Position numbers and translations under genes: made by a program. Below, in pieces: positions 10,067 through 22,000 of a DNA stretch of 64,000 bases. The notes under the pieces are model-generated. The model saw only the letters and a program-made list of their open reading frames with translations. It ran no database searches and had not been told where the DNA came from. Every line of letters begins with the position of its first letter. Positions within the stretch are counted from its first letter, which is position 1. The stretch lies in NCBI GenBank assembly GCA_965112155.1, contig OZ218101.1; one strand, given 5' to 3'. The stretch is from Podarcis liolepis (taxonomy: Eukaryota).

Positions 10067-13000
10067 GTAAACGGGGGCGGAATGGCGGGTGGGCCTGGAG
10101 GACCGAGGCGTATCCCCCCCCTGCTCCCCGGCCTGTTTTCGGGGGCCCTCCGGACTCATTGAATCGATCCTAATTCGCCCCTTTACTCCTTTTATTCTCG
10201 CCCCCCCCCGCATCCTCCTCACGCCGCTCTCTTGGTGGCGCATTTAACTGTGACGCAGTTCCTTTTGTGGGGTTCGCCCCATTGGCGCCTCGCGAAGCCC
10301 CGAGCCTCCCTCGGGAAAGGGAGCCGAGCGAGGCCAGCGGAGCCCCCGCGAACGAGGAAAGGGAGCGGCGCGGCGGAGAGCGGAGGGTAGCTCGGGTGAA
10401 GCGCCGCCGGGCCCTTTGAGGCCTGCTGTGGGGGCTTTGTGCGTCGCTGGCGACTGCTTACATCTGCCGGGCCCCCTAGCGGCGGCGGCCGGGAACTGCA
10501 GCGGGTGGGGGACAACGGCGGCCATTGTGCGTGTGACGAAGCGAGGTGGGGGGGGAGAAAGAGGCTGCTTGGTGGCGGAGGCGCGTGCGCGGCTCCCTCT
10601 GTCTGGGGAAGGGGAGGAGGAGGGGAGTGGGAGCCACAATGGCTCTGGTGCTGCTGCTGCCGCTGCTCCTCCCGCTCTGCCTTACGCGCGCGCGCGCGCC
10701 CCCGACTCCTTTGTCCTCGAGGCCCACGAGGTGGGGGGGAAGGGCAGGCCTAAGGCCGCGTCTTCCTCTCGTCTTGGCTTCTCGGAAGCCTGTTTAAAAT
10801 GAAGTTGCGCCTTCCCTCTGCCCGGTTTGGGGCGGGGTGGCGCTGCGCTAGAGCCGGCTCCCGAAGTAGGTCACGAAGCCGGCCGGGAAGGGGAAAAGAG
10901 GAAGGAGCCACGTGACGCGGCCGGATTAGCGGCCGCCAGTGAAAGCCGAGCGCCGCTGCTTGTGTCGCTCCGGCCGTAAACCCCCCCCGGGGGGGGCGGC
11001 GCTCCGTCTTCGCCAGGCCCGCTTGTGGGGCGGGGAGGAGGGAACGCTTTCCCCCAAGGCCCACCCGGCCGAGCGAGCCTGCCTTGTACAACTGCTAATA
11101 GCTCTGTCTGAAGGCCGCGCGAGATGATGTGCATCCATCTTAAGTTGAAAAAGGGGATTCTTAGATATAAATGGATTTTTTTATTAACCCCCCCCCCCTT
11201 CCGCAAACAAAATTCATTTTCATGAGTATATGAAAATATTCAGCAGCGGTATTTTTTACCTTGGTTGTATATACCGCTTGGACAATTCTAAGGCCTAGGC
11301 CCTTTTTTCTTGACAGCTTCAGTAGGAGTAGCTTCTTGAGGAAGGCTAAGGTATACAGTGCAAGCTTAAGTTCCATTTTATTTTTAAAAGCATTGGCATA
11401 AGTAACGTTTGAGGAAAGGGGAATTTGGGTTGTAGTCTACTGTATTTTTGAATGCAAATATTAAGCATATTGGAAGACAGCACTAAATTGAGGCCTTTGT
11501 CCATAATGTCACATGCTTTAAGTAAAACCAAAGTATGTTTTAAGGAGGTATGGTTTAAATTGACATTAAATTTTCAACAGCAATATCAAAGCTATTCTGG
11601 TGTTTAATGCTGAGAGCCTGCTAATTTACAATGTGAGATGAGATTAGAAATTCTTTACTAGTTGAAGTATTTTCAATTACTCAGGTTGAATGACTATTCT
11701 CTTTTTTAAAAAGTTTGCTGGTCTAGACTTGAATTCTTCAGACGATCAGAGTGGAGGAGGTACAGCAAGCAGTAAGTATATAATTCAGAAGTAAAGCATC
11801 TTACTGCAGCTAGTAGAGAGTATTTGATGGCATGTTTGTCCAGTACAATAGTAGAAAAATGGCAGATTTTTATGCTTGAGAGAGCAGATCTATGGCATCC
11901 TGTAAGTACTGTAATTGTAGACTACTAAATCTCATTGGTTTTCTGTGTAAATCAGTTACACCTAAATCTGTTGTACATTACATGTTACCATGCTAGAAAC
12001 TTGCCTTTAAAATGACTGTTAAGAACCTTAAATTGGGTGCCTGCTTAATCAATTAATTGCAGACCTTGAAGGAGTAGACTGCAAGTTGCGTACAGTTTTG
12101 GTGCACAATAGTATGAGCATGGTATCAAAAGGGATTTAGTGATTGTGTTACTCAAGAGTACATAAATTGTTTCATCTGCTAAAACGGGGTATGTATTTAT
12201 TTCCTATAGTGAGGCAGCAGCACATTCCAGTTATTGTTGTTACTATTATGTATTAAATTTGTATATTGTCTGAGAATACAAAATACATTAGAAAACAAAG
12301 CAAACTAATAACACACTTCCCACAAACACATTTTGAAAGCCATAGAATGTTAATTAGCCAAATGCCTGCTTGAAGAGCAAAGTTTTCGTTTGGCACCTTT
12401 ATTACATACATTTAGGTGTCCCTAGGGGAGAGCATTCCACAAATGGGGAACCACCATCCAAAAGGCTCGTTCTCGTGTTGCCACCCTTTGGTTGTTTGCA
12501 TATTTATAACAATGAAAATGCTTGGGAAGGGGTGCTATATGTTTAGACTATATGCTTAAGCATGAAGTACTTAAACACTTCTTAATGTGCATGTTGGTTT
12601 GTTTTTTTGTAAGTTATTTAAAGTTGCTATAGCAAAAAATGACTAAGTTTAATCAATAAACAAAATAAGGTGTTAATATTATTAGTAATAAAAGAGCAAC
12701 AGACCTTGCTGCATAGAGTTTTAATCTGAAACTTTTTTTCCAACTTTCAGAAGGCCGGTACATTCCTCCTCACTTACGGAATAGAGAAGCTTCAAAGCAG
12801 GGTATGTTCGTTGGTACTTGAATATATAGAACATCAGGGTTAAAAAAATAGGCTCACAAATGAATTGAACTGCAAGAACCTGAAAATGTTTGGTGCTCAG
12901 ATTCAGGGAGATTTGGTACAAGGGGTTGGATGTATGAGTATCTAGGCTTTTGAAAGTAGGGAAAGGTATTAAGAGTGCACATTTAAGTAACATCTTATTA

Positions 13001-19000: not shown

Positions 19001-22000
19001 CCAACAAAACTTGAGTGTCCACTGCTGCTCTTGGCAATAAAGACAGCTTCTTTCTAGAGAGCTTAGATCAGGTTATAGTAGCACAGGTTGAGACTTCTTA
19101 GGGGAGTTTGAGGCTTTGTTTATCAAGTACCATTTTCAGAGCTGTTTTGCCCTCAGCTGGAAAGCTACAGAATTAGTACTCATTCTTGTTGGCTACTTGA
19201 ATTTGGATCCCGGAGCCTTAATTATAGTTACAGCTACAGGATACTACCGTAGAATTCTGGAGTTGTATAGTTATCCAAATAAAACAGTCATACGAATGTC
19301 TCAAGAACAGTGAAGCTTCTCACTGAGTGGCCTCATTATACCAGTTACCACCGACTCCAGATTTTTCCTGTCAGGAAATACCATCAGTCTCCAGGTCTTT
19401 TCACTGCTTTCTGTTTCATCATCTTTGCTTCAGTGTACCTGTGGACACATTGATGGACTCCGGGAAGGTCTCGTTTTCAGCCCAGGTTGCCATTTTTTTC
19501 TTGAGACAAATTAATTGTAACTACAATTAAGATAATGACATGATTTTTGGAAGTGGTTCACGAAAGGTTGCCTAATGGCCATACTCTACTACAACGCCAT
19601 GGGCGCAAAAGTAGGCAGGGTCCTAATGGACATTTCTAGGCTTTGCTTTTGGGGTTTGCTGCAGTTCGAGAGAATCATCGGCTGCTGCCTCTTGAATATA
19701 ATTTGCTACATGATCACCCTGGACCAGCTTTTTAAACGCTGCCATCTTGCAATATTGGCAGTAAAATACCCGATTTCAGTGCCTTTCCTTGATTTAAAAT
19801 GTGCAATAAAATATGGGAATTTCTCTTAAGAGAGGCTGCTAATTACTCAAACATTTTCATGGTAATGGTTTGAGGGATTTTGTATCTTTACAGTGAGCAT
19901 CTACACAATCAGTGATTTCATTGGTGATTTTATTATTCCTAGGATTTGATGGTGGGTGGAATGCTGGCAGAGACAGGGATGCTGCATACAGTAGCTTTGG
20001 TGCAAGGAGTGACCGTGGATCAGGAAAATCAAGCTTCTTTGCTGAGCGTGGTAATGGTTCAAGAGGAAGGTAAAAATGTAGCTCTTTTCCCATTAAAAAT
20101 GTGAATGCCACCACTGTAAAACATTCAGTAATCTGTAGAAATAGGGGAGAACTGACCAAGGTTAAGACGTGTGTTTTTTGTGTTGAAAGCCTGCTTTGTA
20201 GCTCTTAGGCTTGCATTGACTGCAGCATGTTAATTTTTGTGTGTATAGGGCTACCCTCTCATTTCCACCAACTTACTGCTGTAGGACTTCTAAAGTTTAC
20301 ATCCTTGTGCCTTCTTAGCATTAGCACATATGCCCCAGCAGAAAGACAGGGGAATGACAATTTAGAGCAACTGTGCAGGAATGGCATATATCTGGGATTG
20401 GAAGGAGCTCTTTCAGTAAGCTTTCTCCTTGTTTGATGAAGGACCAGGAGGCTGGGGCGTTCAGGGGATGTGGCAGAATTGTGTTGCGAGAGCAGTAGAG
20501 GAGTTAAATGATAGTCCAATTCCCAACGTTGATTAAAATGCAATCTGAACAATTAAATGCCTCTACCTGGCAGGTGTGCCACCTCAAATTTCGTTGGTAT
20601 TCTGTCCACATGCCTCATATATATGAGACAGTTGAAATATTGGGGTAATATATCCTTCCCAAGGGGATGTCAAATCTTGGGAAATAGATAGCGGTGGTGT
20701 TATACTAATTTATTGTTTAATTATATCATGAAATACTTTGAAGCTGCCTAGCAGCCAGGCAGCTTCATTAGTGTGTTTAGTACATCACATCACAGAAACT
20801 GTCATGAACACTGGTTTTAGTGTAATTTCATGTAATCTAGGTTTGATGACCGTGGTGGAAGAGGCGGTGAATTTGATGGCATTAGCAGTCGTGGTGGTGA
20901 TAGAAGTGCCTTTGGCGGCAGATTTGATCGTGGTGGAAACAGTCGTTGGTCTGATAAAAGTGATGAAGATGACTGGTCTAAACCACTTGCCCCAAGTGAA
21001 CGTGTGGAGCAGTAAGTACTAGCAGTGGGATCTGGTGGTCTGTAAGTCAGGTATTCAGTGCTGTGTGATGGTACATTGAATGTTTATCTTCTAGGGAGCT
21101 GTTTGCTGGTGGTAATACTGGCATTAATTTTGAGAAGTATGATGACATTCCGGTTGAAGCAACAGGCAACAACTGTCCTCCACACATTGAGAGCGTAAGT
21201 ATTTGTTTAATGCTACAACTAGTGTGCTGCTTACACTAGAATACCAAGGGACTACTGTTGTAAATAAAAATATGCCCTTTTCCCTTATGGGGTATCCAAG
21301 AGCCCATATAGAGTCCTTACATAGGTTCCCTATTGGTAGGAGAAAATAACAGAGGCCAACCAGAGAATATTGAGAAGCAAAGCAGCTAGTAAGCTTGATC
21401 TTTATTAATCTGTTGCAACAGGGTGCTCCCCTCACACGCAGGAGAGGAAGAGCACCCCAGAAATGCTGTGCAAGGGCTTATAAAGACTTTTGAAATTCCC
21501 ATCCTCCAGATCAAGACCACCCCCAGAAACATTATGCATACATCACAGAAGGGGTGTAACCTAAGACCACCCCTCAGATATATCCCACCTACATCACAGA
21601 AATTTAAATATTGTTTTTCTCCTGTTGTTGTTTATCTCCTGTCTAGCAGGTTGCTTGATTGGATTTCCTGGGGAGCCTGGCCATTCTTTTGTAGTGGTAA
21701 AATACTTATTTCCTGGGCCAGGTCACAGGCTCACACCTTATTCAAACAGAACAGACATATCCTTGAGACAGGATTTGTGAGGAAAGAGACAATAGGGAGG
21801 CTTTTCCAGTTTAACCTTGCAGAGAAAGGATTTGGTCAGTTTAGGAATCAAAATGGTTCCAGGTTGGTCTTCCTGTGTTGTTCTATGTATGTGCAGTTAT
21901 GAACATTACCATATATCTAAGACCATAAAATTCCTATCACACTACTTTTATACATTTAAATTAGCGTTGTGGATCTGATGGTCCTTCAAAAGGGACACTT

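Follow-up and report, generated by a model that had tools for sequence, protein, structure and literature searches.

The systems closest to the arrangement reported here are exon pairs in which one combination is eliminated. In FGFR2 (exons 8a and 8b) and HPS1 (exons 6a and 7), each exon is productive somewhere, and one combination is stopped and removed (PMC12322889). Related to these are the poison and essential exons of SR-protein genes (PMC12322889, PMC11387194). A third point of reference is the set of isoforms annotated for vertebrate DDX3X/An3/PL10 in RefSeq and UniRef, in which both cassettes discussed below already appear. The locus considered here is DDX3X of the lizard Podarcis liolepis, within a stretch of 64,000 nucleotides (contig OZ218101.1 of GenBank assembly GCA_965112155.1; hereafter the window), where two cassette exons, A and B, lie between the constitutive exons 3 and 4. 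Each cassette preserves the reading frame, yet splicing exon A directly to exon 4 assembles a TGA across the junction. A preliminary description of the window proposed that this stop serves as a built-in switch. The stop itself is borne out, but the direct A-4 transcript is probably a rare by-product cleared by nonsense-mediated decay (NMD), which would make the arrangement a passive filter and not a selected switch of DDX3X dose.

A stop codon assembled from two frame-keeping exons

The borders among exons 3, A, B, and 4 all lie in phase 1 (Table 1), and the splice paths 3-4, 3-B-4, and 3-A-B-4 are open. Following exon 3 or exon B, the GA with which exon 4 begins completes a codon for Gly, and in all productive isoforms the second of these bases falls at a silent third position. 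After exon A, the same two bases complete TGA. In the 3-A-4 path this stop occupies coding nucleotides 214-216 (codon 72), with 13 introns still to follow, and the reading frame beyond it stays open when B is skipped. Arithmetic on the window and a full gene model both agree with the preliminary description on the coordinates, end bases, and phases of the four exons, on the three in-frame paths, on the origin of the premature TGA purely in the junction, and on its position far upstream of the last junction. Exon A also has a tandem acceptor (15541-15547) that yields a 57-nucleotide form from 15547, with or without one Ala, and the A-4 TGA forms equally when the exon starts at this second acceptor. 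Models with and without the Ala occur in coelacanth, medaka, and carp, which indicates that the tandem site itself is ancient.

The gene model behind these statements comprises 19 exons, spans 10022-28062, and translates to 736 residues when both cassettes are included, 716 when only B is, and 672 when neither is. Each translation differs by one mismatch from an annotated protein (P0029, P0018, and P0067, respectively) that its source names as a Podarcis muralis DDX3X isoform, and this, together with the full helicase frame, identifies the gene as an ortholog of DDX3X. A search of the lizard's own genome found DDX3X in single copy and no retrocopies recording old isoforms. The donor of exon A is not unusual, as 7 of the 18 DDX3X donors have a last exon base other than G. 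Exon B, for its part, has an AAG acceptor (AAG is also found in L003, a teleost-like locus described below) and a non-consensus donor, GTGGGC.

Whether the stop exceeds chance can be judged from the gene itself. Among 34 in-frame, codon-splitting skip junctions in DDX3X there are two stops, both from exon A; of the six later phase-1 acceptors to which A could be joined, two give a stop, those of exon 4 and exon 13, and the A-to-exon 13 junction has no plausible use. The A-4 stop is not clearly beyond chance.

The preliminary description took it as established that such a stop triggers NMD. Decay of the A-4 product is indeed predicted by the 50-nucleotide rule (PMC12322889), as the TGA lies more than 50 nucleotides upstream of a later junction. 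"Established" is nevertheless too strong. Stops close to the start codon can escape NMD up to a gene-specific border located at about codon 22 to 100, with measured borders of about 22, 22, and 50, and one near 100 (PMC12776119, a preprint). Codon 72 falls within this range, and thus decay is likely but not certain.

Use and history of exons A and B

The use of the two cassettes was followed in a set of 620 proteins. Of these, 576 contain the exon 3 anchor, and exon A is included in 331 (330 recognized by profile and one by inspection). An exon-B search contributed 59 proteins, every named one of them from a squamate, turtle, or crocodilian. A search with the N-terminal region, of which the best 120 of 203 matches were listed, added amphibians, coelacanth, and fish, and cluster look-ups supplied further isoforms. 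The 169 squamate and turtle proteins divide into 44 with both A and B, 65 with B only, 51 with neither, and 9 without the exon 3 anchor; exon A without B was found in none of the 169. The exon-B search required B, but an A-only protein would have outranked the listed 3-4 forms had it been a cluster representative. In these gene models exon A is therefore used and B can be skipped, and the two circumstances that the preliminary description had itself named as contrary to its proposal, an unused A and a constitutive B, do not obtain; a constitutive B is rejected by the 51 models that contain neither cassette. Several models (P0040, P0177, P0178, P0057-P0059, and P0129) begin just 5′ of A or at a Met within B, which may reflect transcripts with a start in intron 3 or with this intron retained.

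Exon A is present in sturgeon, gar, eels, herrings, carps, perch-like fish, coelacanth, caecilians, turtles, and squamates. Fish feature up to three extra phase-1 cassettes between A and B as well as a longer B, and the coelacanth features two extra cassettes in the same interval, again with a longer B. In frog models, one of the extra cassettes of fish and coelacanth replaces A, and the curated Xenopus record P0229 carries exon B. The lizard retains A, a short B, and only four codons of the long B; gar and coelacanth proteins align through this extension to position 18982, and no long form of B occurs among the lizard models. A search of the lizard introns for remnants of the three fish cassettes gave no convincing match. 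The annotated cassettes A and B of the lizard are survivors of a more extensive array, the one found in fish and coelacanth. Crocodilian proteins (P0045, P0046, and P0049-P0051) have a 22-residue insert before B that is unlike A and has G as its junction base, and that may be B extended upstream. Among the matches listed by the exon-B and N-terminal-region searches, none was a B-containing protein from a bird or a mammal. Since crocodilian B is 91% identical to lizard B, the absence from birds carries some weight, while the evidence for absence from mammals is weak. No literature on the DDX3X cassettes A and B or on the A-4 junction was found, although most subscription journals lay outside the search.

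The terminal T of exon A is a constant feature. At the A junction, the 331 A-bearing proteins have Tyr (203), Phe (68), Cys (53), or Ser (7), across five different downstream exons, and a terminal T fits all 331 across bony vertebrates. Because the codons for Tyr, Phe, and Cys start only with T, this base is ancestral whichever exon comes next, and it predates the stop. The idea that T has been preserved for the sake of the stop is rejected, as T is also kept where no stop forms.

The start of exon 4 behaves differently. Seven fish species have Ala at the junction into exon 4 (read by eye from protein models), which means that exon 4 starts with C there and that A-4 would encode Ser; six further genes have Val, Asn, or Asp at this junction (also by eye). 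Orthologous DNA came from one metagenome scan, in which 73 candidate stretches gave four loci. Two of these, L004 and L005, were weak matches and were dropped, and the other two, L002 and L003, are DDX3X. Exon 4 starts with GT in L002 (bird-like) and with GG in L003 (teleost-like, with B); neither locus extends to exon A, and the A-4 codon of L003 would be Trp, assuming that this fish has an exon A beyond the contig. With C, GG, and GT all found at the start of exon 4, the suggestion that the T of exon A and the GA of exon 4 are conserved together is not borne out outside squamates.

The coordinates of the exons are collected in Table 1. The conserved N-terminal motif in exon 3 is presumably the eIF4E-binding site. 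Elsewhere in DDX3X, two consecutive introns have GC instead of GT at their donors (22569 and 22954), and three exons have AAG acceptors (11714, 18840, and 25286). A later donor of exon 12 (25431-25475) seems to add 15 residues within the helicase core, and this extension is present in some lizard and turtle models and absent from others. Downstream, a 486-codon reading frame with leucine-rich repeats (37249-38709, plus strand) is probably nyctalopin, the usual neighbor of DDX3X.

Table 1. Exons 3 to 4 of Podarcis liolepis DDX3X and features within them (positions in the window)
Feature	Position	Strand	Description
DDX3X exon 3	12751-12801	+	51 nucleotides, constitutive, phase 1 at both ends, last base G
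Cassette exon A	15544-15603	+	60 nucleotides, symmetric phase 1, rich in Tyr, Asn, and Ser, donor GTAAGT
Terminal T of exon A	15603	+	Starts a split codon that reads Tyr when B follows and TGA when exon 4 does
Cassette exon B	18840-18971	+	132 nucleotides, symmetric phase 1, rich in Gly, Arg, and Asp, starts AT, ends G
Long-B remnant	18972-18983	+	Four codons that still match the longer B of fish and coelacanth
Exon 4	19943-20069	+	Constitutive, starts GA

Passive filter or regulated switch

Fish in which the A-4 junction is harmless provide a natural test case. Medaka has three in-frame 3-A-4 models (P0367, P0454, and P0462), the only such models among the 331 A-bearing proteins, and it is in this ortholog alone, as gene models, that the junction forbidden in the lizard is seen spliced. 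The spliceosome is thus able to make it. No A-4 model was retrieved from the other six fish species with Ala, for which isoform sets are partial, so that the junction is represented in one of seven species; for Thalassophryne, one of the six, a 3-4 model was retrieved but an A-4 model was not. Paths that skip B by way of another cassette (A-C-4) are present in conger and medaka models. As A-4 is mostly absent even where it would do no harm, the coupling of A to B does not need the stop, and a bias of A toward B in its absence suggests that shared splicing control is responsible and that the stop is a passenger. A structural basis for such control was not evident: a search for RNA structure coupling A and B gave 24 short imperfect inverted repeats, none of them convincing (no shuffle control was included), and Rfam had no match within 9000-32000. 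One 22-nucleotide pair (15826-15847 and 18820-18841), 82% complementary, joins the intron after A to the acceptor of B, but it is of low complexity and probably due to chance.

The most likely course of events is the following. Exons A and B are ancient optional segments of the N-terminal low-complexity arm of DDX3X, with A normally included, it would seem, only alongside B through shared splicing control, as the same bias in fish with a harmless A-4 junction suggests. Stray A-4 transcripts would stop at codon 72 and then be removed by NMD, and this filter would leave three proteins whose arms are longer by 0, 44, or 64 residues. Once A-4 was rare, drift to the stop-forming base in exon 4 would have been cheap, since that base is silent in all productive isoforms. 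Unproductive splicing is, moreover, described as generally noise, splicing regulators excepted (PMC11387194). The earlier proposal that A is productive only with B and is a poison exon when B is skipped therefore holds in part. None of the 169 squamate and turtle proteins has A without B, and the stop is real; A is not, however, a classical poison exon. Its inclusion does not itself bring a stop or a frame shift, as it is symmetric, stop-free, and coding together with B, and the unproductive outcome is not conserved across long distances, as the A-4 codon encodes an amino acid in medaka and in six or more other fish and would be Trp in L003.

Several points weigh against the view of A-4 as a passively cleared by-product. 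All of the isoform evidence consists of gene models, mostly automatic, and not of reads, from isoform sets that were partly retrieved. Squamate and turtle 3-4 models have Gly at the junction in 51 of 51 cases, which permits a fixed GA without showing it; the exon 4 start bases of this group were read as DNA in this window alone, and GA could be fixed in the group. No A-4 model with Cys or Trp was found in fish that have Gly at the junction, as would be expected if some of them had a stop. In human cells, DDX3X is dosage-sensitive and limits itself by destabilizing its mRNA (PMC11789639), and in such a gene a switch linked to decay would have a use. Lastly, the coelacanth (proteins P0106 and P0122-P0130) may have a second junction stop. 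The first codon of its exon B encodes Glu in 3-B, C-B, and D-B models, from which it follows, as a deduction from residues and not from DNA, that A-B must read TAA or TAG. A direct A-B junction is absent from the 10 models listed, and all five that bear A pass to another cassette first. An independent stop after the same T would fit these models, but this is suggestive only, and gar models likewise lack A-B, though no such stop exists there.

A switch selected in squamates and turtles, in which the shift of transcripts to A-4 would be driven by temperature, by a splicing factor, or by DDX3X itself and would both cut output and alter the length of the disordered arm, draws on the exactness of the stop, the skippable B, the parallel stop deduced in coelacanth, and the post-transcriptional auto-regulation of DDX3X (PMC11789639), as well as on the link that CLK kinases provide between temperature-driven splicing and decay (PMC11570493). 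We consider it improbable. Fish do not share the stop; A is a protein-coding exon retained from sturgeon to lizards; about one third of the junctions after a T-ending exon in DDX3X would yield a stop anyway; and neither a notable inverted repeat nor an Rfam element marks the region. The text of the human auto-regulation paper mentions neither NMD, introns, nor poison exons, and points instead to the 3′ untranslated region by analogy with yeast (PMC11789639). The case for a selected gate is weak. Somewhat less improbable, though still unlikely, is that the stop is virtual because A in the lizard is never joined to exon 4, its inclusion committing the transcript to B. The 169 proteins without a single A-only form and the six of seven fish species that lack an A-4 model despite a sense junction would be expected in that case, but the medaka models show that A-4 can form, the A-C-4 paths of conger and medaka show that B can be passed over after A, and the sites of exon B look weak at both ends. 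Least probable of all is an A-4 transcript that is made and escapes decay, its start-proximal stop giving a 71-residue N-terminal peptide or, on read-through, a full-length helicase of 692 residues. The stop at coding nucleotides 214-216 and the open frame past the TGA when B is skipped allow for such products, as does a decay-free zone that ends, depending on the gene, at codon 22-100; most measured borders, however, lie before codon 72, and the TGA is followed by T and not by the leaky CT context (PMC12776119). There is also no SECIS (selenocysteine insertion sequence) match, parts of the 3′ region being masked.

Comparison with known systems

If the A-4 stop is a filter only, as we favor, it is a neat case of a stop assembled across two frame-keeping exons and little more, albeit one that splicing classifiers based on length would label harmless. 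The wider finding is weightier: in fish, amphibians, and reptiles, the DDX3X arm can contain as many as five optional segments, in varying sets, in a dosage-sensitive disease gene that is mostly studied in its mammalian form. This arm drives condensate formation. In yeast, the condensation temperature of the ortholog follows habitat temperature (PMC11570493), and with a cassette array in the condensate arm, tuning of ectotherm DDX3X by splicing becomes testable with existing RNA data. A bolder picture, which we regard as a long shot, is that in ectotherms the ancient array sets the length and stickiness of the condensate arm, that the fixed T turns chosen skips into stops (A-4 in lizards and A-B in coelacanth), that temperature-dependent splicing tunes both isoforms and dose, and that the array was lost separately in birds and in mammals as each turned warm-blooded.

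A literature search for a precedent of junction-made stops gave general papers only. Among the systems named at the outset, in FGFR2 the stop of the eliminated combination arises from a frame shift. The same is true of HPS1 (PMC12322889), whereas the DDX3X stop is put together from one and two bases across the junction, with both A and B symmetric. The forbidden product of DDX3X also differs from theirs in being, in lizards, a prediction from the gene sequence. Relative to SR-protein genes, A resembles a poison exon when set against 3-4, and B an essential exon when set against 3-A-B-4 (PMC12322889, PMC11387194), but A, unlike a poison exon, contains no stop and encodes conserved protein, and the outcome of its joining to exon 4 is not conserved in fish. 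Ultimately, DDX3X would work like FGFR2 and HPS1 (PMC12322889): every exon has some other combination in which it is productive, its partner can be skipped, as the 169 squamate and turtle proteins indicate, and removal of one combination would leave a non-random set of isoforms.

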